Source: an uncultured Bacteroidales bacterium (GTDB lineage Bacteria; Bacteroidota; Bacteroidia; Bacteroidales; GCA-2748055). Taken from it: a stretch of DNA of 64,000 nucleotides. The translations under genes and the position numbers were made by a program. Below the pieces are notes generated by a model, which did not search any database, was not told the DNA's origin, and saw nothing but the letters and a program-made list of their open reading frames with translations. Below, one piece after another: positions 44,478 through 63,125 of this stretch. Where the stretch lies: the NCBI GenBank assembly GCA_963809925.1, contig CAWELH010000005.1, forward strand, positions 87,196 to 151,195, in the 5' to 3' direction. Each line of letters starts with the position of its first letter. Positions within the stretch are counted from its first letter, which is position 1.

Positions 44478-46124
44478 TTACAAGGCGTATGTAAATCCGA
44501 TCATGGCCTGGAAACGCTGAGCAGGGTACTGATTCCATATCTGATATTTGGATGCTGTGAGATTATTCAGTCTGAGAAAGAAAGAAAGAAGCTTCGTGTA
44601 GCGGTATTCCACCGAAAGATTTGCATCAAGAAAGGGCTTTAGTTCAATATCGTCGGGAATACCGGGGGCAAAGCGGGTACCGGTAAGAAAGAGTCCGGCA
44701 TCAACGAGTATTTTGTCACGCAGATTATAGGATGCACCCAGCGTAGCATCGAAATCGGGTCTGTGCCAGGGATGCGCCAGGCTGTCAAGATTGTAATGAT
44801 AGTAATTCCCCCTGAGAACGATCTGTAGCTTGTCGTTTTGGTTCCATGTGACCTCCGCAGAGGGATTCAGCAAGCCGGCATTGTCGTACTGTACGGTGTA
44901 CTGATTCTGTAAAACAGAGCTCGTGTCCGGTACGAAAAAGTACATATCGCTCACCTGTGAATAGGACAGCTTGAAATCAAATGACATCTTGGAGCTGTAC
45001 TTTCCCTTTAGTCCGAAATAGCCGTTCATCCCATAATCACTGTTCATAACAGAGAGACCGGGAACGATGTATGGATTTTCAAACAGAATTTTCCTGTAGC
45101 TGTTGATTTCACGGTATCCGTCAATACCCATATAAGGGATAAGAACATTTTTTACAATAGTGAACTGAAACCGTGCTTTCGGGTAAATGTGTATGGCGCC
45201 TCCATCCCGGATATCCGTTGTAGTATTTAATCCCAGCATGAAGGTCCATTCATCGCCCGATTTGGATACGAATGGGTTAACCCTGACCACCAGGTTATCT
45301 GAAGAGTCAATGGTGACAGATTTCCCGTAATAGTCCACACCCATGTCAAGTCCTGAATACCAGTCACCAATGAAATCCTCGAGCTTTGCATTGATACTGA
45401 TCGCATTCTCCGTATTTTTGAAAGCATCATGGGTAAGCTGATAATCCAATCCGAAATTATACTTAAAATGCAGCGAATCGGGATAGCTTGAATACCATGA
45501 TACGCCGGCACCCGCTGAATAAATTTTCTGTCGTATATCTTTTTTATTAAGAATGGTATCCAACTCAGGATTGTAACCATAGTATAACACTGAATTGTAC
45601 CCACCGGTGACATGACCCTCAACCACTGATCTATAGAACATATGTCTCCCGTAAAGCTCCCCGATATTGTCGCTATAGGAGGCCGGTACTCTCACGTCAT
45701 TCTCCAGCTTTACTTTTCCCGCCGACGACTGATGATTCAGGTAAAGGCCGAACGCATTTTTCCTTGATCTCAACTGATTAACAGTTAGTTCCGCAAATGG
45801 AGTGAAGTAATTTCCGAGGCCCAGTGACAGTTGACTTTTGTATAACCTTTCAAGGGGAAGTCCAACCATCCTTGCCGGCTGAATTGGCCTGACACTGAAA
45901 TGGGTACCGTAGCGTTTTGGTGTGATGGAATAGTCAAAATTGGTTGAAATGCGGGTTGAGTCGCTAAATTTTGGCAACAGGTTTATCTTTTGAGCATCCG
46001 ACAATGTTGGGTTATATGGTTTTACCACCCTGACTTCCTTGTCGATCTGCTCCTGCGAAAAAGCTCCGAATGATAGTAGAGCCAGAACTGTCAAAATGTA
46101 TATGCGCTTAAGGTATGATTTCAT
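44478..46124 (-). CDS. Outer-membrane beta-barrel protein (TonB-dependent-receptor-like C-terminus)
   Basis: Signal peptide, VRVVKPYNPTLSDA.KI, alternating aromatic beta strands, LNNL...Y, terminal GFTYAL. Confidence 0.7.
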   Translation of the reverse strand: MKSYLKRIYILTVLALLSFGAFSQEQIDKEVRVVKPYNPTLSDAQKINLLPKFSDSTRISTNFDYSITPKRYGTHFSVRPIQPARMVGLPLERLYKSQLSLGLGNYFTPFAELTVNQLRSRKNAFGLYLNHQSSAGKVKLENDVRVPASYSDNIGELYGRHMFYRSVVEGHVTGGYNSVLYYGYNPELDTILNKKDIRQKIYSAGAGVSWYSSYPDSLHFKYNFGLDYQLTHDAFKNTENAISINAKLEDFIGDWYSGLDMGVDYYGKSVTIDSSDNLVVRVNPFVSKSGDEWTFMLGLNTTTDIRDGGAIHIYPKARFQFTIVKNVLIPYMGIDGYREINSYRKILFENPYIVPGLSVMNSDYGMNGYFGLKGKYSSKMSFDFKLSYSQVSDMYFFVPDTSSVLQNQYTVQYDNAGLLNPSAEVTWNQNDKLQIVLRGNYYHYNLDSLAHPWHRPDFDATLGASYNLRDKILVDAGLFLTGTRFAPGIPDDIELKPFLDANLSVEYRYTKLLSFFLRLNNLTASKYQIWNQYPAQRFQAMIGFTYAL

Positions 46125-49414: not shown

Positions 49415-50131
49415 ATGGCTCTCGACAACATCATTGAATTCCATACCGCATCAATACTCATTAAAGATCACCTCGTTTTATCCGATCTTGAATTTACTAT
49501 TCAGAAAGGTGAATTTGTTTATGTGATCGGAAAAGTCGGAAGTGGTAAAACCAGCCTGATCAAAACAATCAACGCCGAGATCCCGCTTAAGGAAGGCAGT
49601 GCGGTGGTCACCGGATTTAACCTTGAGTCAATAAAGCAAAAACAGGTCCCCTTCCTGAGGCGCAAACTGGGTATAGTCTTCCAGGATTTTCAATTGCTGA
49701 CCGACAGAACGGTAAATGAAAATCTTTCTTTTGTTCTGAAAGCTACGGGTTGGAAAGCAAAGGAAGATATCAACACCCGAATTGGAGAAGTGCTGGAGAA
49801 GGTCGGATTGGGTTTCAAAGGATACAAAATGCCACACCAGTTATCGGGAGGTGAACAGCAAAGGGTTGTAATCGCCAGGGCTTTACTCAATGATCCTGAA
49901 ATCATTCTTGCTGATGAGCCTACCGGAAATCTCGACCCTCAGACTTCCGAAGGCATTATGAACATCCTTACCGATATCAGTAAAAATGGAAGAGCCGTGG
50001 TTATGGCCACACATAACTACAACCTGTTGAAAAAATTTCCGGCAAGGATCTTTAAGTGTATCGATGGGAAAATCGTGGAAACAGATATGGATGATCCTGA
50101 AATTAAATTTTTAACCGGTCAGATGTCCTAG
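49415..50131 (+). CDS. ftsE: FtsE-like ABC ATP-binding protein
   Basis: GKVGSGKT, LRRKLGIVFQDFQLL, LSGGEQQR, ILADEPTGNLD, MATH. Confidence 0.85.
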   Translation: MALDNIIEFHTASILIKDHLVLSDLEFTIQKGEFVYVIGKVGSGKTSLIKTINAEIPLKEGSAVVTGFNLESIKQKQVPFLRRKLGIVFQDFQLLTDRTVNENLSFVLKATGWKAKEDINTRIGEVLEKVGLGFKGYKMPHQLSGGEQQRVVIARALLNDPEIILADEPTGNLDPQTSEGIMNILTDISKNGRAVVMATHNYNLLKKFPARIFKCIDGKIVETDMDDPEIKFLTGQMS

Positions 50132-51246
50132 GTGAAAAGGTAATCGCCGTCCCCATCCTGCATCACAAAATCTTTTCCACTGATCTTGGCAATCTGTTCA
50201 TCTATAGCAGTATACCTGATTTTCTCCAGGGAAGTGCGATACATTTTTGGATTAGCTTTGATAAACCTGACAAAAGCTTCATGAAAACTGACGATGACTT
50301 TATAGTTATCGTTGCGGAGAATGAAACGGTAGAGTTCGGAAAAAAATTCCTCTTCAAATTCGTGAGTATACCAGAGATAGGACGTTTTCACCGTACCGTC
50401 GCGGTATGTAAGAAGCGCGATACCTGCCCTGGTATCTGACTTCCGTATCTCCAGCCAGGAGTAACGGAAGTCAGATGCGTAAATGCTGAAGAAATAATGA
50501 GGTCGCAGCGCTTTGTATTCATTCTTATCCTGGGTCAGCCAGTGACTGTCCATCCACCATTCAATCTGCGATTTATCGGGTCTGGTAATGTCATGATGAG
50601 AATGCTCCTGTATAAACTTGATTTGGCTGTCAGAGGGAAAGTCGCTTTCAAGGGTGCTCCAATCCGTACTGGCTTGAATAAAAGCCCTGTGCCGTTTCTT
50701 TACCGATAGATTTAGCATCAGGTCATAAAGTCGAAACAAGCCTGTCACGGCCATGATATTCACCATTCGGCCGGGGAGTGATGTTTTCCTTATATTGACG
50801 GCTCGCTCGTGCATCGATGATCTCAGGCGTACAAGCACACCCTGCCTTTTCCTGATGATAAAACCTCCCAGGCTCTGAATTATAAGCATAGTCTGATGGC
50901 TCAGATCTGAAAACAGGACACGCCGGTTTGTAATTCTAAGAAATTCCATCAAAAGCGGCACCGAGACCTGGCCGCCATAGCGCGGGTCTGCATACCAGCA
51001 GGAATTCCAGAAAATTTTCTGATCAGGCCTTCCGTTTAGCAGCCCCGGAAGGATACCGGCAAATCCGCAAACATTGCCGGATGCGTCTTTTACGTATAGA
51101 AGAAGGATATCATCTTTCGCGGCAACGGGATTCAACGCCTGTCCACGGGCCCGCCAGGGTGTAATCGCAATGCCTGTACCGGGAGCTGCGGCCATGTCAT
51201 CTGCAACCTGAATGAGTTCATGTTGTTTTATCCTGATCAGTTCCAT
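50128..51246 (-). CDS. Hypothetical protein with a probable GNAT-like fold
   Basis: GFAGILP...WNSCWYADPRYGG resembles a GNAT motif A region. ATG 51246 overlaps the ACP stop by 1 nt. Confidence 0.55.
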   Translation of the reverse strand: MELIRIKQHELIQVADDMAAAPGTGIAITPWRARGQALNPVAAKDDILLLYVKDASGNVCGFAGILPGLLNGRPDQKIFWNSCWYADPRYGGQVSVPLLMEFLRITNRRVLFSDLSHQTMLIIQSLGGFIIRKRQGVLVRLRSSMHERAVNIRKTSLPGRMVNIMAVTGLFRLYDLMLNLSVKKRHRAFIQASTDWSTLESDFPSDSQIKFIQEHSHHDITRPDKSQIEWWMDSHWLTQDKNEYKALRPHYFFSIYASDFRYSWLEIRKSDTRAGIALLTYRDGTVKTSYLWYTHEFEEEFFSELYRFILRNDNYKVIVSFHEAFVRFIKANPKMYRTSLEKIRYTAIDEQIAKISGKDFVMQDGDGDYLFT

Positions 51247-51488
51247 CAGGCATGATGATTTTTCTCCACCGCCCGGCATATATCGCCGTAGGTCCTCATT
51301 GTAAGCATATCATCAAGACCAAACCTGATCCCGAATTCCTTTTCTATCCCGGTGATCAGCATGATATGTTTCAGGCTGTCCCACTCACGGATATCCTTTG
51401 GACTGGTATTGTCATTGATATCATCTTCAACTGTAAATGTATGTGTAAATACAGTCAGGACCCGTCGTTTTATTTCTTCCATTTCCAT
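51246..51488 (-). CDS. Acyl/aminoacyl carrier protein
   Basis: 80 aa, acidic; WDSL phosphopantetheine Ser motif; IEKEFGIRF. Confidence 0.9.
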   Translation of the reverse strand: MEMEEIKRRVLTVFTHTFTVEDDINDNTSPKDIREWDSLKHIMLITGIEKEFGIRFGLDDMLTMRTYGDICRAVEKNHHA

Positions 51489-51499
51489 AACGCGTACAT

Positions 51500-52270
51500 T
51501 CAGAATTTCCCCACCATCCAGAAAATGCCAAAGTGGCTGTTTTCAGTGAATCCCAGCTTTTTATAAACAGGGTAACCCGCAGATGTGGAGTGAAGCACAA
51601 ATTTACGAAACCCTTTCCGGATAAAATAATCCATAGCCTCCGAAGTGATCCAAGTTCCATACCCCTTACCTCTGAATTCACTCTTTGTTGACACCATGTA
51701 AATGCCTGTCGTATCACCATTCCGGAATCCCAGGAGGGTGGCCACAGTTTTCTTCTGTCTCAGTATTCTGAAGAATTCAAATTCAGGAGCATTGAGTGCT
51801 GGACGAAATAACCGGTAATCAATGGTCTTTCCGCTCATTACCTCATGATTCACTACATCAAGCCATTCCCGTAGTTCCCTTTCGCCTGTGATCCGTTCAA
51901 TGGTTATGTCCCTAGACGGAGCCAGACGGCCAAAGATCGTTTCCTTCACCATCTCCATCCCAGACCATAAATTGATTTGTCGAATCCCATATTCTGCAAC
52001 TGACGCTGCAAACTCATCCCCTGGTACTATTTCTCTCAGCCAGAAGGCGGGCAACTCGCGGTTGCGCATTTTTTCACAGATCTCCCCGATGATGTCTGTG
52101 GAAAGCTTACCGCCACCGAACACATAAGAAGGCCAGCTGCCGTCGGGATTCAGTACATAGCTGATGCCGTTTGCTTCGCCTGTTGGGAGTCCGGAGAGCA
52201 TGGCAATCCTTTTATAAAAACTGGTGAGATTGGATCCGGTTTCTGTTTCCAGGCTCATTTGCTGATCCAT
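51500..52270 (-). CDS. GNAT acyltransferase
   Basis: GIYMVSTKSEFRGKGYG, LHSTSAGYPVYKKLGF. Confidence 0.85.
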   Translation of the reverse strand: MDQQMSLETETGSNLTSFYKRIAMLSGLPTGEANGISYVLNPDGSWPSYVFGGGKLSTDIIGEICEKMRNRELPAFWLREIVPGDEFAASVAEYGIRQINLWSGMEMVKETIFGRLAPSRDITIERITGERELREWLDVVNHEVMSGKTIDYRLFRPALNAPEFEFFRILRQKKTVATLLGFRNGDTTGIYMVSTKSEFRGKGYGTWITSEAMDYFIRKGFRKFVLHSTSAGYPVYKKLGFTENSHFGIFWMVGKF

Positions 52271-53763
52271 TTATAAAGTTCCCTGCGATCGATCTTACCA
52301 CTCACAAGCTTCGGGAGTTCATCCAGGTTAATGATGCGTCCTGGAATCATATATGAAGGCAGTTTTTTTCTTAAATACTCAAGCACCTCCTTTTCATGAC
52401 CCTTGCGGTCTTCAGTAAAAAGGCATATTTCCATTGTACCGGCTTCTTTCTCGGCTGCGATTGCGATAACATTTGGTTGTGAGAGAACATCGCGGGCATG
52501 CTTCTCAATTTCACCGAGTTCTACCCTGAAGCCATGAATCTGAACCTGATTGTCCATTCTTCCGCAATACATCACATCTCCTTCATCGTCGACGTATACA
52601 AGATCTCCTGTACGATAATAACGGCGTGATTCACCGTTATGGTCCAGGTCAAAAAAAGCTTCCGCGGTCTTCGCAGGATCCTTCCAATAGCCACGGGTAA
52701 TCTGATCACCGGAGATGCATAATTCACCCTGCCTATGAGCTTGCACAGGTTTTAGTTTCCGGTCCACAACCACCATAATGTTTTCTCCAAAGACCTTCCC
52801 TATGGAAACGATACCCCCATGTGATTTTTGTGACGAGTTTTCAGCACTCCAGCTATAGATGAGGCAATTTATGGTGGCTTCCGTTGGACCATATACATTT
52901 TGTATCCTTGCATTTGGGACCGATGCGGCCCAGGCTTCAGCAAGGATTGATGGAAACGCTTCTCCCCCAAGCAGACAATACCGCAGGCTATCCAGCCTGA
53001 TGGAACTAAAATACGGCTTAAGATATGCCAGTGTTGATGGCGGCATTTTCACAAACGTAAGCTGTTGCTCCTGCATAAGTTTGTATGCGTACAGGTATTT
53101 TATTTCTTTCTGGGGTACCGTGTATACACAGCCTCCCACGGTCAGAGGTACGGTGTAGCAATGCACAGAAGCATCGAATGACAAGTCGTATATCTGTAAA
53201 AACCGGTCCTCAGGAGTGAAATTGTACCCTGCCGAAATGAAAGAGCTGACGAAGGAATTCAAATTTCTTCTGCTTATGGGCACCCCTTTGGGTTCTCCTG
53301 TGCTGCCAGAGGTGAAAAGCACATAAAAATCGTCGTCGGGATTTGCCGGTACTTGCGTTGGATCTGCTTTTACCGATATGCCGGTGGTCCGCCGGAATGT
53401 GACAGTGCAACCCTCCGGCAATGCAGACAAGGGAATATCCATGGAATGAAGGATATGTGTTATCCCAGTCTGCTGAAGGATATTTTCATTTCGTGAGGAC
53501 GGATTCATGGGATTAAGCGGTACGAAAGCCCTGCCGCTGAACCAAGTGGCAAATATCGTCGCATAGGTCTCAAGATCATCAAAAGTATAGATCGCCAGAT
53601 ATCTCTTATCCGGTGGAACATCGTTGGAGATAAGTGCCTGAATAGATCCGGTTTTCTTCCTCAATTCCTCATAAGAGTAACTTACTCCCTGAATGTAAAA
53701 GGCATTCCTTTCAGGATATTGCTCAAAATTTTCAAGTAACCTGTCAAGAAAAGAAAAATGCAT
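52255..53763 (-). CDS. Stand-alone amino-acid adenylation enzyme (DltA-like carrier-protein ligase)
   Basis: A3 YVLFTSGSTGEPKG, A4 SFDASV, A5 NVYGPTEAT, A7 YRTGDL, A8 GR.D.QV...GFRVELGEIE, A10 SGKIDR. Confidence 0.92.
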   Translation of the reverse strand: MHFSFLDRLLENFEQYPERNAFYIQGVSYSYEELRKKTGSIQALISNDVPPDKRYLAIYTFDDLETYATIFATWFSGRAFVPLNPMNPSSRNENILQQTGITHILHSMDIPLSALPEGCTVTFRRTTGISVKADPTQVPANPDDDFYVLFTSGSTGEPKGVPISRRNLNSFVSSFISAGYNFTPEDRFLQIYDLSFDASVHCYTVPLTVGGCVYTVPQKEIKYLYAYKLMQEQQLTFVKMPPSTLAYLKPYFSSIRLDSLRYCLLGGEAFPSILAEAWAASVPNARIQNVYGPTEATINCLIYSWSAENSSQKSHGGIVSIGKVFGENIMVVVDRKLKPVQAHRQGELCISGDQITRGYWKDPAKTAEAFFDLDHNGESRRYYRTGDLVYVDDEGDVMYCGRMDNQVQIHGFRVELGEIEKHARDVLSQPNVIAIAAEKEAGTMEICLFTEDRKGHEKEVLEYLRKKLPSYMIPGRIINLDELPKLVSGKIDRRELYKWISK

Positions 53764-53787
53764 ATCATTCTGAATTTGAATATTATA

Positions 53788-54834
53788 TCACTTATTCGAA
53801 GTAGTCTGCCTGATAATTCTGTTCCGACCGGCTAATGATTTCAGTATGTAATAAAAGTACTCTGATTTAAGATATTTCTCAGCATTTGGACCTGATTTTT
53901 CCAATGGTATCCTCTGGTAGTGAGGATAAGGCTCATCCTCCTTCAACCCTGATGTGCCGAAAGAAGCATCAAGAAAGCCTGATTTGCTATCGTACAACCG
54001 ACGGAAAACATCGCTGCCCGTACCTGTATCGCTGAATGGAAAGGAAAACAGGGAATAGCTTAAATCAAACCTTTCCTTTATACCCTTCACACTACGTTCA
54101 ATCTCTTCAATCTGTGCCCCATCATCCAGGCTGTGAAATGACGGATGGTCAAGGCTGTGTCCCCCAACAAAGAATCCCTTTTGAATGAGGCGGCTTATTT
54201 CCTCATCATTCATATAGGGTCTGTGTACAGATAAATAATTTTCGAAATCGACTTCAAGATAGGTGGCCAGTACTGAAATGATGGCATTCGAATCATACCC
54301 AATCTTAAGTATTGCAGCCGCCAGACTTTCCCTGTCAAACTTTGGCACTCCCATTGCACCCGATATTTTTTTAAGGGTTTCTGTCCCAATGCCCGGCTTT
54401 TTCAAGGCTTCGAGGAGCAATGAAACCTTGTATCGGTAAAAAAGTCCCTGATTTCCAATGAAATTATTATTCAGAAAGAAAATGGCATTAATTCCCTTTG
54501 ACTCAAGAATAGGTGCAACGATTCTTTTTACTTCGGAAAGCCCGTCGTCGAAACTGAGGATAAAAGCCGGCTTTTGATGTTGTTTTGGAGGATTATTATT
54601 CAGCAACAGCTCTGGTGATGCCGGTTCAAAATACCTGAGCAGGTCCTCAATATCCTTTTTAAATTCAACGATGCCCTTAACCCGGTAGAGATGCCTGATA
54701 TGCGGAGGAGGAGCGTCGCTGATCAAATGATAGAACGGAAAAATAAGAACCTTCCCGGTCCGGCGAATCATCCTCTCCAATGAAAATAATGAAGCCAGCG
54801 GCAAAATTAAGTTTCGCAGTTCAGCCATGCTCAT
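53788..54834 (-). CDS. Polysaccharide deacetylase (CE4/NodB-like)
   Basis: PFYH, LSFDDG, GGHSLDHP, FSFPF motifs. Confidence 0.85.
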   Translation of the reverse strand: MSMAELRNLILPLASLFSLERMIRRTGKVLIFPFYHLISDAPPPHIRHLYRVKGIVEFKKDIEDLLRYFEPASPELLLNNNPPKQHQKPAFILSFDDGLSEVKRIVAPILESKGINAIFFLNNNFIGNQGLFYRYKVSLLLEALKKPGIGTETLKKISGAMGVPKFDRESLAAAILKIGYDSNAIISVLATYLEVDFENYLSVHRPYMNDEEISRLIQKGFFVGGHSLDHPSFHSLDDGAQIEEIERSVKGIKERFDLSYSLFSFPFSDTGTGSDVFRRLYDSKSGFLDASFGTSGLKEDEPYPHYQRIPLEKSGPNAEKYLKSEYFYYILKSLAGRNRIIRQTTSNK

Positions 54835-55736
54835 TTTTTTAAAAAGCGGAGAAGTAAAGGTAACCGATTAATTGTAAGTGTATTATATTTAATTTCCCTG
54901 GCTCCGAAGCCGGTAAAAAACCGGGCTATTCCCGGGATATTTGATCCCTCAAAATCGAGTAACATACCTGTACCGGCATACAAGCCGATCAGGTAATCGA
55001 CGATGCCGAACATGGCACGGGAAGCCTTGCCTTCTTCATCCGATACCGGGATCAGGTAGTTGATCCTTCCGTTGGACACAGTAAAAAATGCAGCAGCCAC
55101 CAGCCTGTCTCCGATCCTGGCACCAATAAGACGCCCCCGACCCATGGAAATGACCTTATCTGCAAAACAGTTCATCCATTCATAATGATCGACAGGATAT
55201 TTGACCACGGCATTTTCCCTTTTCAGACGCACCAGATCAGGAATCGTCAATTTCTCGGTAAGCTCCACGAATGGAAGTGACTTTTGAATATTTCGTTTCG
55301 TATTATCAGAATAATTGTCCTTAATTTCCTGATACTTCCTTCCAAGCCTGAGTTCATAATTTGAATTACCGGTGAAGTGGTAGGATGTTCCACCAAGGTC
55401 ATTGGTGAAATTCATGTTAATCTTTGCATATCGGACGAAAGGCGGGATGGCTTTCAGAAATTCATCCACCCGGGCAGCATTGACCCAAGATCGTGAGAAA
55501 ATACCCAACTGCTGACTGTAATATGGCTGAAAAAGGTAAGAGATGCCGGCCTTTTTCTTAAATGTCAGCGGCATAACGGTCCGGTAATCATCTTCAACAA
55601 GCCCTCCCCATCCGGGAGCCGTTAGGTCGAGGTACCACGATAAGGCATAAATCAGTCCAGCCTTTGAACTACTGATACATTCGTCCCATTTTTTACGATC
55701 GATCTTACCTTGTCCGATATAGCTTATCATTGCCAA
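54831..55736 (-). CDS. GNAT/FemAB-like (BioF2-like) acyltransferase
   Basis: IDRKKWDECI, IYALSWYLD, QPYYSQQLG, LDFEGSNIPGIARFF..FGA. Confidence 0.75.
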   Translation of the reverse strand: MAMISYIGQGKIDRKKWDECISSSKAGLIYALSWYLDLTAPGWGGLVEDDYRTVMPLTFKKKAGISYLFQPYYSQQLGIFSRSWVNAARVDEFLKAIPPFVRYAKINMNFTNDLGGTSYHFTGNSNYELRLGRKYQEIKDNYSDNTKRNIQKSLPFVELTEKLTIPDLVRLKRENAVVKYPVDHYEWMNCFADKVISMGRGRLIGARIGDRLVAAAFFTVSNGRINYLIPVSDEEGKASRAMFGIVDYLIGLYAGTGMLLDFEGSNIPGIARFFTGFGAREIKYNTLTINRLPLLLRFLKK

Positions 55737-57048
55737 ATGTTTCTGTTAGCCATCCGTACATTTTTTCATAAACAATCCTCCACCCTTCCCATTCCCCGGT
55801 GTCACAGAGGGAATCGTTATGCCAGACAGGGATGAAGCATCCACCCTCTTCCTTAACCACCGAAGCCAGAAGTTTAATTTTCTTGAAGGCTTCATCCGGA
55901 TTCAGCTTTAAATAGTCTTTAAGTGTCCTGTCCATTACAGTAAATGGAAATATTTTCAATTTAGTAACATCTTCTTTTTCAAGATCATAGAAATAAAATG
56001 GTGAGGAAGTCCCGGCTCTGAATCCCGTTTTATCGGCGTATCCCATGGAGTAATCCTCGGTCAACCCTGCCCCGGCAAAATGACGGTAGGTAGATGGAAA
56101 TGCCAGCCGTAAAAAATGCTGACGGACCCTGGTCAGTGGTTTTCCCGTAAGCTGTTCGATAGTCTGTTTTTCATTTCTGAACACCTTGGGTTTCTCTCCG
56201 GAGTGGTACGAGGGATGAAAACCGATGTTGTATTTTTCTGAAAGGTTGCGGACGAGGGCTTTCCATTCCGGGTTTGTTACCGGATTGTTCAGATCATATT
56301 TTCCACCCTGACCGGCAAGCATGAAGATGATGAGGTTGGCGTTATGGCTTTCTACTATATAATCGTAAGTATCATACGGATCAGGTTCTGAGCCTGCAAG
56401 AATCGAAAATCTCGAAATAAGGTTTTTAAGATCAGCCTTAAGCACTTGTCGTCCTATTCCACCGATCGTCCTGTAAAGCCCCTTGTTCCTTACTGACCAC
56501 GCCACATCGATGTCAATGGTTGGAAGGAAGGATGAAGCCGGGAGAGTAAGAACCAGGGAGGGAAATTTTTGCTTCAGTTTACGGCCAAGTTTGTTTGCCC
56601 AACGGTTTATCACCGGAATTTCGAGAAAGCCATTCCGATATGCCAGGCTCTCAGTTGCCGGGAAACGCCCATGGTGATCGCTGCCGAACGGCAGGTATTC
56701 CTCATATCTCGACATAAGGTAAAACGCTGCGGAAAAAATATCAAAGTCTATATTTCCACTATCGGCAGGAAAAATGTGAATCTCCTCATTCTGCTTTCTG
56801 ATTATCGGATTTAGGGCACGAATCCCATGTTCGGCAAGAAAACCGGAGTCCAAAATATGAAACGAGTCCCGGATTAACTCATGGGAGTAATTAATAACAG
56901 GGCCTTGATATGAAACGCCTTCCTCTTTTACGTTTGAAAATATGATCTTTAATCCCAGCAGTTCGCCAAGGATGAATGAGGCGGCATACCGGAGTCTGGG
57001 GGTGATATTTTCAGCGTAGATCAGCACGGTGTCAGGTTTCAAGTTCAA
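55705..57048 (-). CDS. Polysaccharide-deacetylase-like protein (DUF7033/WbmS-like)
   Basis: DIFSAAFYLMSRYEEY, TIDID, GFHPSY, RQHFLR, DYSMGY...GFRAGT, WHN. Confidence 0.8.
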   Translation of the reverse strand: MNLKPDTVLIYAENITPRLRYAASFILGELLGLKIIFSNVKEEGVSYQGPVINYSHELIRDSFHILDSGFLAEHGIRALNPIIRKQNEEIHIFPADSGNIDFDIFSAAFYLMSRYEEYLPFGSDHHGRFPATESLAYRNGFLEIPVINRWANKLGRKLKQKFPSLVLTLPASSFLPTIDIDVAWSVRNKGLYRTIGGIGRQVLKADLKNLISRFSILAGSEPDPYDTYDYIVESHNANLIIFMLAGQGGKYDLNNPVTNPEWKALVRNLSEKYNIGFHPSYHSGEKPKVFRNEKQTIEQLTGKPLTRVRQHFLRLAFPSTYRHFAGAGLTEDYSMGYADKTGFRAGTSSPFYFYDLEKEDVTKLKIFPFTVMDRTLKDYLKLNPDEAFKKIKLLASVVKEEGGCFIPVWHNDSLCDTGEWEGWRIVYEKMYGWLTETFGNDKLYRTR

Positions 57049-59527
57049 TAATTGTAATCCCGGAACCGCCCCTTTCTACATGTTCATCGGCGTAAGATTT
57101 TACCAGATCGACACCGGAAAGGTACTGGCGAACCAATTCCCGGAGTATGCCGTTTCCCTTCCCGTGCAGAACCCTTAGATGCCGTGCCTGTACCATTACC
57201 GCCTGATCAATGAAATCGGTGAGCATTGCCATGGCTTCATCGGCACGTTTTCCGCGCAGGTCGATGTCGGGGTGAAAATTCATTCTTCTACGGCCAATGT
57301 TCCAGTCGTTGTCAGATGCCTGCATTTGAACAGGGCGGTCCAGTTTTTTATATTTCTCACTGCTGATCTTTTCCAGGGAGGTGATACCAACCACGGTATG
57401 CAGGCTGCCAAAAGCCACAGTGGCTTTTCCTGCACGCATACTGACAACCTCACCCGGTGTCTCCTGCCCTTTCATCAGCACAAAGTCTCCTGCCTTGATT
57501 TCTGTATCTGTTATTTCCTGTCCTTTATCCGGATTCTTTCGCAGTGCCGGATTTCTGGCTTTAATTTTCTCACTGGTTTTCCTGATTTCAACCAGCCGCT
57601 GTTTTAACACATCGCCCTCATTCACCGAGGTTGTATCTGCATTAACTTTCTCACGAAAGGCGTCAAGCCGTTTCCGGGCCTCCCTGGTCTTGTCTTTCTC
57701 AGCCTCCGTCTCCCGGATCTCCCGGATGGTATTCTCGATCTGTCGATTGGTATCTGCAAGCAACCGCTTGGCTTCGTCCCTGGCGTCATGAATGATCTGC
57801 TTTCGCAACTTATCCGTATCACTGAGTTCTACATCATATTTATCCACGATCTCTGTAAGTCGTTTCTCAGCCAGCCTGATGCGCTGGCGTTTGTCTTCCC
57901 AGTATTTTTTATCACGGATTATATCTTTCAGATGCTTTTCAAAATCAACATGATCTTTTCCGATCCTCGACTCCGCTGATTTCAGGATATTTTCAGGCAG
58001 CCCGATTTTTCTGGCGATTTCAAAGGCAAACGATGAACCGGGTCTTCCCGGTGCCAGTTTGAATATCGGCTGCATTTTATTTGTATCAAACAGCATAGCG
58101 CCGTTTATGATGCCATCTGCTGATGCTGCAAAATGCTTAAGATTTGTGTAATGTGTAGTAATAACACCGAAAACTCCTGCTTCATTAAGGTCTTCAAGCA
58201 CCGATTCCGCGATTGCCCCACCCAGCATTGGCTCTGTACCACTTCCGAATTCGTCAATAAGTACCAGGCTGTTTTTTGTGGCATTCCTGGTAAAATATTT
58301 CATATTAATAAGATGGGAACTGTACGTGCTGAGATCATTTTCGATCGATTGTTCATCACCCATGTCCAGGAATATACGCTCGAAGCAGCCGCAAACAGAG
58401 CTCTCATCAATGGTGACGAGAAATCCACATTGCAACATATATTGCAGTAGACCTGCTGTCTGGAGACACACAGATTTACCGCCTGCATTCGGACCCGAGA
58501 TCAGCAGGATCCTGTTTTTCACATCAAGCTTCAGATCTAATGGAACAACCTCATGCTCTTTATTCAATTCACGGAAAGACTGGAGCAGGTTTGGATGTAT
58601 AGCTTTGTGCCAGTCTATTTCAGGATCATTTTTCACAAACGGCATGGTAGCCCCGATGTCAAGCGCAAACCGTGCCCTTGCCCTTACCGAATCGATTTGG
58701 GCCAGAAAGTGATGTGAGTGCTGAAGATCTTCAATATAGGGACGGATAAAATCGGTGAGAGCAATAAGAATTTTAACCTTTTCCCGTCGTTCCGCTATTT
58801 CCAGTTCCCTGAGTTCATTATTGGCTTCCACAACTTCGGCCGGTTCTATAAAAGCGGTTTTACCGGTAGCCGATTCATCGTGAACATACCCTTTGATCTG
58901 CCGCTTATTTATGGCCGGTACCGGGATTACCGGCCTCCCGTTTCGGATCGTCAGACTGGCATCCTCATCAACCAGTCCCTGCTGACGTGCCGTTTCAAGC
59001 AGCCTGTTGATCTTCTTTGATATGGCAGCTTCTTTGCCATTGATCTCACGGCGTAACCGCTGGAGGTCGGGCGAAGCATTATCACGGATCTTCCCGTGTT
59101 TATTCAGAATATTGCCGATCCGGTCAATAACTGCAGGGTAAACCATTACGACAGAAGCCATAGCCAATAACCTTGGATAGCCTTCTTTTGCCCCTGATTT
59201 TAAAAATGTCAGAATGGCTCTGACAGATTCCAGTGTCCGTTTGATATCAAAAAATTCCTGCTCCTCAAGAAAACTACCCTCTACCTTAGCCTTTTTTAAT
59301 GGTTCTGAAATATCGATGAAATAGCCGATAGGAAATTCAGTTTCGCCAAGGATAATACCGCGAAACTCACTTACCTCTTCAAGCCGGCTGCGAATGATGT
59401 CCGGATCGGCAGAGAACGGTGTATTCATAATTTCTTCCCTGCCGGGATCAAAAAGGCAGAATTTTGACGCCTGTTCCCTGATCTTGTCAGCACCGATCTT
59501 TTTCTCGAAATTTTCAGGATATATCAC
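57032..59527 (-). CDS. mutS2: MutS2 (MutS ATPase plus C-terminal Smr domain)
   Basis: ISGPNAGGKS, LSTYSSHL, LIDEFGSGTEP, TTHY, Smr IDLRG...LHGKGNG...GGSG. GTG start; TACCTTTG box at 59546-59553. Confidence 0.95.
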   Translation of the reverse strand: MIYPENFEKKIGADKIREQASKFCLFDPGREEIMNTPFSADPDIIRSRLEEVSEFRGIILGETEFPIGYFIDISEPLKKAKVEGSFLEEQEFFDIKRTLESVRAILTFLKSGAKEGYPRLLAMASVVMVYPAVIDRIGNILNKHGKIRDNASPDLQRLRREINGKEAAISKKINRLLETARQQGLVDEDASLTIRNGRPVIPVPAINKRQIKGYVHDESATGKTAFIEPAEVVEANNELRELEIAERREKVKILIALTDFIRPYIEDLQHSHHFLAQIDSVRARARFALDIGATMPFVKNDPEIDWHKAIHPNLLQSFRELNKEHEVVPLDLKLDVKNRILLISGPNAGGKSVCLQTAGLLQYMLQCGFLVTIDESSVCGCFERIFLDMGDEQSIENDLSTYSSHLINMKYFTRNATKNSLVLIDEFGSGTEPMLGGAIAESVLEDLNEAGVFGVITTHYTNLKHFAASADGIINGAMLFDTNKMQPIFKLAPGRPGSSFAFEIARKIGLPENILKSAESRIGKDHVDFEKHLKDIIRDKKYWEDKRQRIRLAEKRLTEIVDKYDVELSDTDKLRKQIIHDARDEAKRLLADTNRQIENTIREIRETEAEKDKTREARKRLDAFREKVNADTTSVNEGDVLKQRLVEIRKTSEKIKARNPALRKNPDKGQEITDTEIKAGDFVLMKGQETPGEVVSMRAGKATVAFGSLHTVVGITSLEKISSEKYKKLDRPVQMQASDNDWNIGRRRMNFHPDIDLRGKRADEAMAMLTDFIDQAVMVQARHLRVLHGKGNGILRELVRQYLSGVDLVKSYADEHVERGGSGITIIELET

Positions 59528-60782: not shown

Positions 60783-61949
60783 ATGAAACACTGTTTTCGT
60801 ATAGTTCTGATTTCCTTGCTGGCGACTGCAATGTGCCCGGCTCAGCAGCCTGAAAAAATTTATTCTGTAGCGAAGGTCAGGAAAACACATGAGTACTATG
60901 TTTCTCAGGCCGGATTATGGTGGAATATTGTGAATGAACATCGCCAAGACGAGGATGGCTGGTATAACTATTTTGCAGCCTGCAGGATGGCAGGCCTGAC
61001 TAACCAGGATAATGTCGATTGGCTGAGCGAAAGTCCTGCACTGAAAAAAGGGGATGATATCGTGGCGCTCATCGAAAAAAATATACCCGGAACCTTTACC
61101 GCTCATTACGTCAAATGGTGGAATCATGGTGCGGATATTGCCATGTTCGATGAATTAAAGAAAGCAGCAGAAATTGACCCTGACAGGGTTGAAATCTATG
61201 ATGGCTTTGTCGTTTATGGTGAAGTAACCGGGAATCCCGCAATGAGAAAAGAGTATAACCTGAAATGGTATGCATCAGAAACGATGTCAACAGGACTGTT
61301 ATACTTCAATTACAATGTGTTACAATCGCTCGACAAGGATGCCGTCCTGCTCACCGGAGGAGATAATGATACATTACCAATCTGGATGTTGCAGGACGTC
61401 AAAGGGATCCGAAAGGATGTTATTGTTCTGAATATAAGCCTGTTGTCTATCCCCTCCTATAGACACGAAATGTTCGGAAAGCTTAAAATGCCAGATCTGA
61501 ATGCAAGCTTTGATGACGGTTCATCGCCGTCAAATCTCAAGGAAATCGTTGATTTTTTTATCCTGAATCATCCCGTTGACAGACCGGTATACTTCACCTT
61601 AACTTCGTGGAAACAGTTTAATGAATATTCGGACAAGCTGTACCTTACCGGATTGGTATCCAGGTTTTCAGAAGAAAACATTGATAATATAGCCACATTG
61701 AGAAATAATTTTGAAAATAAATATTTACTCGATTACCTTAAAATGCCACTCGCTCACGATATTTCTGAAAGTGTTGTTAATTATATCAATGTAAATTATC
61801 TGCCCGGAATGATTAAATTACATGACCACTATCTCCGTAGTGGTGATACCGCCAGTGCAGGACGAATCCGCGATCTTGCAATGATTATCGCAAAACGGGC
61901 CGGTGATGACTGGACAGAAAAAACAATGGAAATGTTCAATACTCCATGA
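60783..61949 (+). CDS. Exported hypothetical protein with a DUF2723-like GDNDT segment
   Basis: Signal peptide; helical N-half; FNYNVLQSL...LLTGGDNDTLPIWMLQDVKGIRKDVIVLNISLL. Confidence 0.65.
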   Translation: MKHCFRIVLISLLATAMCPAQQPEKIYSVAKVRKTHEYYVSQAGLWWNIVNEHRQDEDGWYNYFAACRMAGLTNQDNVDWLSESPALKKGDDIVALIEKNIPGTFTAHYVKWWNHGADIAMFDELKKAAEIDPDRVEIYDGFVVYGEVTGNPAMRKEYNLKWYASETMSTGLLYFNYNVLQSLDKDAVLLTGGDNDTLPIWMLQDVKGIRKDVIVLNISLLSIPSYRHEMFGKLKMPDLNASFDDGSSPSNLKEIVDFFILNHPVDRPVYFTLTSWKQFNEYSDKLYLTGLVSRFSEENIDNIATLRNNFENKYLLDYLKMPLAHDISESVVNYINVNYLPGMIKLHDHYLRSGDTASAGRIRDLAMIIAKRAGDDWTEKTMEMFNTP

Positions 61950-62494
61950 GGTATAACGGGTATTCGGATGAACAACTGATGCAGATACTGTCCGGCTATG
62001 GTCGCGGACAGCGGTCAAGGGCATTCGACAGCCTTTACGATCGCTATTCACGGCTTCTTTACAGGTATTTTTACCATTCCCTGGGCAGGGACGACGAAAA
62101 ATCAAAAGATTTTCTGCATGACCTTTTCCTGAAGATCCTCGAACGTCCTGAATCCTTCGATGGAAACCGCAATTTCAGACCATGGATCTTCAGTGTAGCG
62201 GCGAATATGTGCAAAAATGAATACAGGAAAATGACTGTCAGGAGTGAACATGCACGACGTGAGATCCGGAACGGAGAAGAGAATCCGGCAGCCGAACCTG
62301 TAAAAAAAACCGCTGATCTCAGAGAAGTGTTCAGAAATATCTCTGAAGAACACCGGACCGTGATCGTAATGCGTTTTAAAATGAAAATGAGTATAAAGGA
62401 AATCGCAGATGTACTAGAAATCCCTGAAGGGACTGTTAAATCAAGGTTGTACTACAGCCTGAGAGAACTGAGAAAATATATGAATTCACAATAA
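61946..62494 (+). CDS. ECF sigma-70 factor
   Basis: AFDSLYDRY, D.LHDLFLK, FRPWIFSVAANMCKN, SIKEIADVLEIPEGTVKSRL. Confidence 0.93.
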   Translation: MRYNGYSDEQLMQILSGYGRGQRSRAFDSLYDRYSRLLYRYFYHSLGRDDEKSKDFLHDLFLKILERPESFDGNRNFRPWIFSVAANMCKNEYRKMTVRSEHARREIRNGEENPAAEPVKKTADLREVFRNISEEHRTVIVMRFKMKMSIKEIADVLEIPEGTVKSRLYYSLRELRKYMNSQ

Positions 62495-62504
62495 TAAGCA
62501 TATC

Positions 62505-63125
62505 ATGACGAAATCAATTATTCCTGAGAAAATATATGAACTTCTCGAAAATTTTGATTTTCAGGAGCTTGAACCCAAAGATCAGTCCATGATTGAGAGC
62601 CAGATTGGGAGGAATGAATATGAGAACCTGCGAAAGACGTATTTGAAGGTTGCGCTGGCGAGCGAAAATCCTTCTGCCGACGGGCCGGTAAATGAAGTTC
62701 ATTTTAGATTGAACAAACGGAAATCATTAACCCGCCGAATCTTCGTCGTACCGGTATGGCAGGCAGCTGCTTCAGTGGTAATCCTGCTGGGAACGGGTTT
62801 TATGTTCGGCTTTATACCGGTTAGTATGAAAAGTTCCACGCTCATCAACACCAAAGATACCGTGTATATTTCACTTGCAGATACCTTCGAAATGCTAAAA
62901 ACCGACACTGTCTGGATGTATCGGGATGCTCCGGTGCAGGCAAGCGTCAAACAGCAGGCGACACGGGAGGTTAAGGTCCCCACAGCTGTGAGTCGCGATC
63001 TGCCGGTTTACGACTGCCGTACCAACCTTTGCCCTAATGACCTTAAAAACACCAATCTTGTGGGTGACAGAAAACTTCCCGGGGGAAGTGAACTGGTAAA
63101 TAAATTTGCAGTGAGGAACTATTGA
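62505..63125 (+). CDS. Single-TM protein, probable anti-sigma factor
   Basis: Follows the ECF sigma gene; WQAAASVVILLG TM segment; DTVY/DTVW motifs. Confidence 0.6.
   Translation: MTKSIIPEKIYELLENFDFQELEPKDQSMIESQIGRNEYENLRKTYLKVALASENPSADGPVNEVHFRLNKRKSLTRRIFVVPVWQAAASVVILLGTGFMFGFIPVSMKSSTLINTKDTVYISLADTFEMLKTDTVWMYRDAPVQASVKQQATREVKVPTAVSRDLPVYDCRTNLCPNDLKNTNLVGDRKLPGGSELVNKFAVRNY

Follow-up and report, generated by a model that had tools for sequence, protein, structure and literature searches.

What do two deacetylases, three dissimilar transferases, an adenylation enzyme and a carrier protein do together when a soil Bacteroidales bacterium encodes them back to back? The genes in question, g1 to g7, lie on the minus strand of a 64,000-nucleotide stretch of contig CAWELH010000005.1 (assembly GCA_963809925.1), hereafter the window. 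A preliminary description of this DNA placed the adenylation enzyme and the acyl carrier protein (ACP) at the heart of a Dlt-like aminoacylation system in which GNATs replace the MBOAT acyltransferase. With moderate confidence, we instead read the block as a cytoplasmic cassette of three modules that exchanges the N-acetyl groups of a nucleotide amino sugar for N-acyl or N-aminoacyl groups, the sugar being bound for a surface glycan. The likeliest candidate is 2,3-diacetamido-glucuronic acid, supplied by the Wbp-type genes of the same genome; we infer this substrate, as we do the donors, the order of the steps and the destination.

The logic of deacetylation followed by aminoacylation is already known from the Vim proteins. 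What the present locus adds is a Fem fold for a VimA-like enzyme, a second deacetylase/transferase pair built on an unnamed family, and an optional arm consisting of a ligase, a carrier and a GNAT. We found none of these additions in the open-access literature searched, nor any description there of a cassette that joins adenylation, a carrier protein and a deacetylase with a nucleotide sugar or with type IX secretion.

A VimE-family deacetylase and a predicted Fem-type, VimA-like transferase

In Porphyromonas gingivalis and Tannerella forsythia, Wbp enzymes are reported to make UDP-2,3-diacetamido-glucuronic acid; VimE has been put forward as the enzyme that takes off the 2-N-acetyl group, VimA attaches serine or glycine, and the Vim product, with VimF as the glycosyltransferase, links type IX secretion cargo to lipopolysaccharide (PMC7468200; PMC13086638). 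The accessible sections of the Vim papers name no amino-acid donor for VimA (PMC7468200; PMC13086638). We regard g1 and g2 as homologues of the two enzymes that carry out this chemistry (PMC7468200), and propose that they act as a deacetylase and an aminoacyl transferase.

The g1 protein contains DUF7033 (Pfam, 113.8 bits), a domain it has in common with the sequence nearest the VimE model. Residues 100-431 of g1 match positions 86-426 of that model (NF053580) at 176.9 bits, with a cut-off of 440. We also searched the model against 301 genomes sampled from the class, a tally that includes two unpublished genomes (G382 and G454) as two data points. It matched 272 of them. The best scores, 314 bits in G119 and 278 bits in G075, extended across the whole model, while the other genomes, like g1, matched at 150-190 bits over positions ~86-428. 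Five residues of g1 (D179, D181, H278, H311 and H410) are shared without exception by 19 family members, among them the one most similar to the VimE model, and g1 is the sole VimE-family gene of its genome. Sequence searches of g1, and likewise of g3, against solved structures gave no match at E<=0.01, and no open-access literature on DUF7033 was found.

The association of g1 with g2 extends beyond this cassette. Among 12 other Bacteroidia loci, the gene immediately after the g1-like gene is g2-like in 7 and g3-like in one; in L037, the gene that precedes and overlaps such a g1/g2-like pair belongs to the UDP-GlcNAc 2-epimerase family. The two near-VimE genomes, G119 and G075, each have one distant g2 homologue. 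That of G075 is 24% identical over 297 residues (E 4e-15) and is followed by a GT4 glycosyltransferase gene; it carries no assigned name, and its identity with VimA is one that we infer. The nearest VimE-like and VimA-like genes that we found share only 24-30% identity with g1 and g2.

By sequence, g2 has just a weak match to Acetyltransf_6 (20.1 bits, cut-off 22). Its AlphaFold2 (AF2) model, built on 19 homologues with a predicted local-distance difference test (pLDDT) score of 93.9, has the double-GNAT fold of the Fem enzymes. The closest solved structures are FemX (6snr; Z 22.8, 286 residues aligned, root-mean-square deviation (rmsd) 3.7), Sbb17 in complex with streptothrisamine (9wqx; Z 22.7, 263 aligned, rmsd 3.4), FemA (1lrz; Z 22.4) and FemXWv (4ii9; Z 21.2). 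These four are all aminoacyl-tRNA-dependent transferases, and the fifth match reaches a Z of only 16.1. The modelled fold thus points to aminoacyl-tRNA as the donor of g2, which therefore probably needs no carrier protein. The idea that GNATs stand in for an MBOAT does not fit a Fem-fold, probably carrier-independent enzyme beside the first deacetylase.

A second deacetylase/transferase pair

The g3 protein is a CE4 deacetylase by its Polysacc_deac_1 match (49.9 bits). Its FDDG motif (F95-G98) and H226/H230 are invariant in 15 orthologues, leaving the CE4 catalytic motifs intact, and its NCBIfam matches to PdaA and PgdA are weak. Its partner, g7, matches no Pfam or NCBIfam family. In the AF2 model of g7 (pLDDT 89.4), the closest folds are N-myristoyltransferases (8fbt, Z 16.5, 285 residues aligned, rmsd 4.5; 2p6e, Z 16.1), followed by the tandem GNAT MAB_4324 (7q3a, Z 15.5), Eis2 (Z 14.2) and glucosamine N-acetyltransferases (Z 14.1 and 13.1), with Fem enzymes at Z 11-12; Foldseek agrees with this fold class. 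The structural comparison proposed for the transferases thus predicts a Fem-type g2 and a tandem-GNAT g7. The "three GNATs" of the preliminary description are of three different kinds: Fem-type g2, classical g5 and tandem g7.

A profile of 14 g7 homologues recovered 1298 representatives at E<=1e-3 (399 of them at E<=1e-30), almost all of them full length at ~365 aa. An impression of extreme rarity, given by a single-sequence search (2 of 301 phylum genomes) and a word-based search (14 proteins), was overturned by this profile. Ten sampled members of the family are unnamed or "hypothetical". The family ends at a fixed position with the motif QDGDGDxxFT, and 122 of the 147 best sequences end in T. 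N-myristoyltransferase uses its C-terminal carboxylate as catalytic base. The conserved terminus in a modelled fold of this type suggests that the terminal carboxylate of the g7 family may likewise be catalytic.

The pairing of g3 with g7 is strict among related loci: g3 accompanies g7 in all 16 that reach far enough upstream. It lies directly before g7 in L005, L014, L016, L018 and L022, and across a deletion scar in L008 and L009. Near two of the loci that contain g3 and g7 only, type IX cargo genes (CHU_C / Por_Secre_tail; L016:11229-12821 and L018:8990-9802) are found downstream, at distances of between a few hundred and a few thousand bases, which may be chance, such genes being numerous.

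An adenylation, carrier and GNAT arm

The remaining three genes form what we call the arm. The adenylation enzyme g4 passes the cut-off of the general amino-acid adenylation model (TIGR01733, 327.6 bits; cut-off 317.4) and fails both DltA models (TIGR01734, 264.7 bits with a cut-off of 559.85; NF003417, 261.5 with a cut-off of 476). Its best solved relatives in a PDB search are the adenylation domain (A-domain) of LgrA (193 bits), a nonribosomal peptide synthetase (NRPS), and DltA (3e7w, 189 bits), so that it lies no nearer to DltA than to an NRPS A-domain. As previously described, g4 contains the motifs FDASV and LGGE. The Cys of the corresponding DltA motif, FCGE, which we take to have a role in D-alanine selection, is Gly in g4.

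We read the specificity code of g4 at ten positions anchored on the core motifs, with PheA numbering. The window, L006 and L013 share the code DAHKLGVINK; L011 has DAHKLGVVNK, and L017, L019, L020 and L021 have DGPK(L/I)G(V/A)I(D/I)K. Across this region, all 8 sequences that span it have D235, K278, G301 and K517 unchanged. Since the Asp and the Lys are retained, an alpha-amino acid is the predicted substrate, and the sequences argue for its activation by g4. The DAHK and DGPK groups follow subclades, and the amino acid loaded may differ between lineages.

The carrier protein g6 matches PP-binding (22.7 bits, cut-off 20.8) and, below cut-off, the ACP model NF006031 (42.9 bits). The serine of its DSL motif is kept in 10 of 11 orthologues and is missing only from L007, a locus without the A-domain. 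The genome has one phosphopantetheinyl transferase gene and no amino-acid A-domain besides g4. The third protein of the arm, g5, belongs to Acetyltransf_1 (35.2 bits), and its pantetheine/CoA-binding loop, R-G-x-G-x-G, is conserved in 11 orthologues; comparing g2, g5 and g7 by eye, we saw the canonical loop in g5 only. Searches of the ESM Atlas with g5 returned generic GNAT clusters only, of 250-260 aa.

Conservation and modularity of the cassette

We assembled related loci from a scan of species genomes with a g7 alignment (17 loci, plus one from an earlier search) and a metagenome scan with a g5 alignment (8 loci), and placed eleven window proteins in them by tblastn. In both sets, genome (18) and metagenome (8), the arrangement recurs in synteny, with protein identities of 26-80%, and it exceeds chance. 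The full order mutS2-g1-g2-g3-g4-g5-g6-g7, followed by a convergent ftsE gene and a tetratricopeptide-repeat (TPR) gene, is found in L006, L011, L017, L019, L020, L044 and L045. In these seven loci, as well as in L008, L009, L013 and L014, mutS2 lies directly upstream of the cassette, and an ftsE-like gene occupies the same position in related loci.

Departures from the full order reveal how the cassette is built. The arm (g4, g5 and g6) is intact in the window and in L006, L011, L013, L017, L019, L020, L044 and L045; L013 lacks g1. In 8 related loci the arm is absent or decayed, with g3 and g7 still there. Thus, L007 has lost g4, and its ACP (L007:2579-2818) reads RDKRK instead of WDSLK, with the serine gone; L008 and L009 have lost g4 and g5, and the 3' end of the ACP gene survives as a remnant with no open frame (L008:5780-6032 and L009:9777-10000). 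Only g1, g2, g3 and g7 are present in L014, g2, g3 and g7 in L022, and g3 and g7 in L005, L016 and L018. The arm genes also keep together, with g5 adjoining the ACP gene in each of the 16 loci that cover both positions, and all six metagenome loci that extend past g5 continue with the ACP gene and then g7. We read this pattern as three modules, g1 with g2, g3 with g7, and g4 with g6 and g5, of which the last is optional and is the part that is lost. It speaks against the adenylation enzyme and ACP as the heart of the system.

Unrelated genes have inserted within the cassette in L017, L019, L020, L044 and L045. They include a GH67 alpha-glucuronidase (whole at L017:5175-7316, a fragment at L019:6611-7411) and an ATPase (L020:3577-4707). 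In L021, an S-adenosylmethionine-dependent methyltransferase (L021:2193-3272) is inserted between g5 and the ACP gene. We considered these genes as pathway parts, and set them aside as insertions.

Proposed pathway

The three modules suggest the following scheme. In the first, g1 would take one N-acetyl group off a UDP-amino sugar, as the counterpart of VimE, and g2 would add an amino acid from aminoacyl-tRNA to the amine freed by g1, as the counterpart of VimA. In the second, g3 would free another amine, and g7 would re-acylate it. In the third, g4 would adenylate an alpha-amino acid and load holo-g6; g5 would bind the pantetheine arm of g6 and hand the aminoacyl group on, either to the sugar itself or to the amino acid that it already bears. 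The earlier proposal that the block deacetylates and then aminoacylates was largely right, as this is the logic of the published Wbp/Vim pathway; its Dlt framing was not supported.

The genome holds candidates for the supply of the sugar. Four adjacent genes (L042:7720-11829, on G000:C8), assigned by domain family, encode a DegT aminotransferase, a hexapeptide acetyltransferase, a GFO/IDH/MocA oxidoreductase and a UDP-GlcNAc 6-dehydrogenase, i.e., enzymes of the WbpE, WbpD, WbpB and WbpA types. After this run come galE and a dTDP-glucose 4,6-dehydratase gene (L042:7720-14058 in all); the region adjoins metG and glmS and is not part of an obvious O-antigen locus. The genome also has one Epimerase_2 gene and a PorU sortase of 1328.7 bits, PorU being above cut-off in 280 of the 301 genomes. 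A possible, if doubtful, fate of the product is to become the sugar by which type IX secretion cargo is attached to lipopolysaccharide. A bolder version seems unlikely to us: that the cassette would build a doubly or triply N-substituted type IX anchor sugar, with one amino acid from aminoacyl-tRNA and a second via A-domain, carrier and GNAT, and that the g7 family would be a bacterial N-myristoyltransferase-like enzyme with a C-terminal carboxylate base. If true, this would be the first carrier-protein (NRPS-like, i.e., resembling nonribosomal peptide synthetases) donor for N-aminoacylation of a nucleotide sugar.

Several observations weigh against the reading of the block as a sugar-editing cassette of the Wbp/Vim kind. 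The g1 score is far below the VimE equivalog cut-off (176.9 vs 440 bits), although none of the 301 class genomes reaches that cut-off, G119 and G075 included. No significant sequence match links g2 to the Fem family (Pfam FemAB, PF02388) or to a solved structure: one g2 orthologue scores 22.4 bits against FemAB (cut-off 24), and the g2 family profile finds a best E of 0.6 among PDB sequences. The modelled fold of g7 resembles that of N-myristoyltransferase and the acyl-CoA-dependent tandem GNATs more than that of the Fem enzymes. We know of no specificity that the g4 code matches, and the code differs between two subclades. The 64-kb window holds no glycosyltransferase (VimF equivalent), flippase or other glycan-assembly gene. 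Finally, PorU occurs without a g1-like gene in G012, G022, G047, G051 and all 8 genomes of family f15, and a g1-like gene occurs without PorU above cut-off in G001, G007, G039 and G043. Given exceptions of both kinds, we gave up the idea that g1-like genes and PorU are strictly linked.

The route to the N-alanyl linking sugar of Prevotella intermedia is described by its authors as unknown, and they expect several pathways across Bacteroidota (PMC11969387). As the source of such a sugar in VimE-less, PorU-positive genomes, the arm was unsupported in five genomes of genus g10: searches with g4 gave no match in three, and in the other two recovered only multi-modular NRPS A-domains (27-36% identity).

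O antigens and the tethers of type IX cargo contain N-aminoacyl amino sugars, to which only the Vim route has been described. The cassette offers a testable set of enzymes for such chemistry, including a Fem-fold relative of VimA that points to an aminoacyl-tRNA donor. Moreover, the arm comes and goes between close relatives, so that strains with and without it can be compared by glycan mass spectrometry.

Alternative functions

The alternative that survives best, itself improbable, is that the cassette makes a small metabolite, an aminoacyl-amino-sugar or an N-acyl amino acid assembled on or released from the carrier in the manner of streptothricin or mitomycin, rather than a glycan precursor. 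Enzymes for such a route are on record: Fem-type enzymes are reported to aminoacylate antibiotic amino-sugar intermediates (Orf11/BD-12) and carrier-bound peptides (PacB) (PMC12945691), and mitomycin is reported to be made by an ACP-tethered route with a sugar deacetylase (PMC8621148). The cassette also has no glycosyltransferase or flippase. It is, however, without an exporter, a regulator or a further tailoring gene, and in GC content it does not differ from the DNA around it. Identical housekeeping genes (mutS2, ftsE and the TPR gene) flank loci that differ by up to ~70% in protein sequence, and pairs like g1 and g2 are found across Bacteroidia, with a g1-like match in 272 of the 301 genomes. 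These points argue against a dedicated metabolite.

Editing of peptidoglycan precursors is, in our view, decidedly improbable. Here, UDP-MurNAc-peptide would receive a branch amino acid from the Fem-type enzyme, and the substrates of the deacetylases would be muropeptide or UDP-sugar intermediates in the cytoplasm. In its favour, FemX and FemA, both peptidoglycan enzymes, are among the top structural matches of g2, peptidoglycan deacetylases are found among the CE4 enzymes (though the PdaA and PgdA matches of g3 are weak), and the cell-division gene ftsE adjoins the block. That gene is convergent, however, and lies outside the operon, and g2, with 301 aa, lacks the extra length of FemA and FemX (400-402 residues in the solved chains). 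The known CE4 deacetylases of peptidoglycan act outside the cytoplasm. Unlike such extracytoplasmic enzymes, g3 has no signal peptide or membrane segment. The placement of g1 in the VimE family, for which the assigned substrate is a UDP-diacetamido-uronic acid (PMC7468200), likewise favours a nucleotide amino sugar as the target.

Envelope aminoacylation of the Dlt or Alm type, in which A-domain and carrier would feed an acyltransferase encoded elsewhere (an MBOAT or AlmG-like enzyme) with the other genes as accessories, is hardly credible. In its favour, g4 can be aligned over its full length with DltA models (264.7 bits; 3e7w, 189 bits), "D-alanine--poly(phosphoribitol) ligase subunit 1" is the database label of its relatives, the genome has three MBOAT genes outside the cassette, and AlmEFG is reported to work as such a trio without DltB or DltD (PMC4278540), yet the score of g4 misses the DltA cut-off of 559.85 bits, the Cys position of FCGE is Gly, the supposed core is the dispensable part of the cassette, DltD (PF04914) gave no match in the 97%-complete genome in a search whose control recovered it in B. 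subtilis and L. lactis, and no MBOAT homologue lies in the window or the 18 related loci. The preliminary description had itself doubted a standard Dlt system, and had named an MBOAT accompanying A-domain/ACP pairs as the observation that would speak against its own proposal; the doubt is borne out, and no such MBOAT was seen in these loci. The three MBOAT genes of the genome are on other contigs, where their neighbours are type IX cargo genes, unknown open reading frames (ORFs) or a GDSL protein gene, and none is beside a carrier protein. Two of them (L001, G000:C4:52933-56616; L002, G000:C6:385884-389507) each have, on one side, a preceding gene for a small protein that bears a type IX secretion C-terminal domain and, on the other, a following unknown ORF of 319 or 332 aa; the L002 match contains one TAA.

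Gene layout and surroundings

All seven ORFs were confirmed as a tightly packed minus-strand block, as first described (Table 1). Neighbouring genes overlap by 32 nt (g1/g2), 4 nt (g2/g3), 16 nt (g4/g5) and 1 nt (g6/g7), or are separated by 24 nt (g3-g4) and 11 nt (g5-g6). The start of g7 is MELIRIK in the database protein and in all 14 homologues, giving 372 aa, although the longest ORF extends to 51279; the true start of g2 is probably the Met two codons downstream of the ORF start. The 3' end of mutS2 overlaps g1 by 17 nt, such that the tight block counts eight genes, and the cassette may be co-transcribed with this DNA-repair/ribosome-rescue gene. At the other end, g7 and the ftsE-like gene are convergent and their stop regions overlap by 4 nt (50128-50131), leaving no space for a terminator between them.

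Table 1. Genes of the block and the genes on either side of it; coordinates are positions in the window.
Gene	Coordinates	Strand	Description
g1	55705-57048	-	VimE-family deacetylase, DUF7033 domain, 447 aa
g2	54831-55736	-	VimA-like, Fem-type transferase (predicted), 301 aa
g3	53788-54834	-	CE4 (NodB-type) deacetylase, 348 aa, soluble
g4	52255-53763	-	Free-standing amino-acid adenylation enzyme, 502 aa
g5	51500-52270	-	Classical GNAT, 256 aa, N-terminal extension
g6	51246-51488	-	Acyl/aminoacyl carrier protein, 80 aa
g7	50128-51246	-	Tandem-GNAT acyltransferase (predicted), 372 aa, unnamed family
mutS2	57032-59527	-	Endonuclease MutS2; TIGR01069 797.8 bits; MutS_V + Smr domains
ftsE-like	49415-50131	+	ABC ATPase; TIGR02673 235.5 bits, below cut-off; marks cassette end

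All seven proteins look cytoplasmic. In a Kyte-Doolittle scan with 19-residue windows, no window exceeded 1.6 in any of them, in agreement with the earlier remark that multi-transmembrane regions are not obvious. A Pfam scan of the cluster likewise bore out the reported lack of MBOAT, condensation, thioesterase and glycosyltransferase domains. The GC content of the block (0.43-0.47) equals that of the remainder of the window, and each of the seven genes is single copy in the genome. Scans for sigma-70 promoters and terminators stayed near shuffled sequence (24 vs 21.0 +/- 4.3 and 15 vs 9.7 +/- 3.3) and were uninformative.

The remaining genes of the window serve hexuronate and xylose catabolism or encode a TRAP transporter, a histidine kinase, GyrB and similar proteins. 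Three ORFs, at 44478-46124 (minus strand, 548 aa), 60783-61949 (plus strand, 388 aa) and 62505-63125 (plus strand, 206 aa), match no Pfam or NCBIfam family. The last of these follows a gene for an extracytoplasmic function (ECF)-type sigma factor (61946-62494) and could encode its anti-sigma factor.

Comparison with known systems

The cassette shares features with several known systems. Like AlmEFG of Vibrio cholerae and DltABCD of Gram-positive bacteria, it has a free-standing A-domain and a small carrier with a DSL serine in one operon with a transferase (PMC4278540). Its candidate transferases are, however, soluble GNATs rather than an MBOAT, DltD or a lipid A acyltransferase; the seven proteins contain no AlmG-like membrane lipid A acyltransferase domain or hydrophobic segment, the proposed acceptor is a soluble sugar precursor, and the arm is an optional add-on to the deacetylase/transferase pairs. 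Unlike NRPS systems, the cassette has only the A-domain and carrier, with no condensation or thioesterase domain.

The gene set for tetronate acylation of perosamine in V. cholerae O1 reportedly includes an ACP and an AMP-forming ligase. There, a hydroxy acid is built on the carrier, with no deacetylase step or Fem-type enzyme, unlike in the cassette. The common element is that dedicated genes (VC0248-VC0252) supply an unusual N-acyl group for an O-antigen amino sugar (PMC3441752).

Among single enzymes, g7 resembles N-myristoyltransferase and the tandem GNATs (Eis, MAB_4324, MshD and glucosamine N-acetyltransferase) in a modelled two-GNAT fold over its whole length (Z 13-16.5), and differs from them in its low identity (7-13%), in belonging to no Pfam family and in showing no canonical CoA loop by eye. 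The g2 model shares its fold with the FemABX-type transferases, a group that includes Sbb17/Orf11 of streptothricin-type pathways (PMC12945691), and in size g2 is like Sbb17 (286 residues solved), the structure of which contains an amino-sugar substrate. Unlike FemABX, it has no significant sequence match to Pfam FemAB or the PDB, and it is shorter than the FemA and FemX chains (400-402).

The closest parallel is the Wbp/Vim pathway. The cassette departs from it in having five genes without a counterpart there (the CE4 deacetylase, the A-domain, the GNAT, the ACP and the tandem GNAT) and in that neither g1-g7 nor the flanking genes encode a VimF-type glycosyltransferase domain. It agrees with the Wbp/Vim pathway in placing a predicted deacetylase of the DUF7033/VimE family beside a putative VimA-like transferase of ~300 aa, in that its genome also carries Wbp-type genes and PorU, and in the same predicted chemistry, by which an N-acetyl group would come off and an amino acid would go on.

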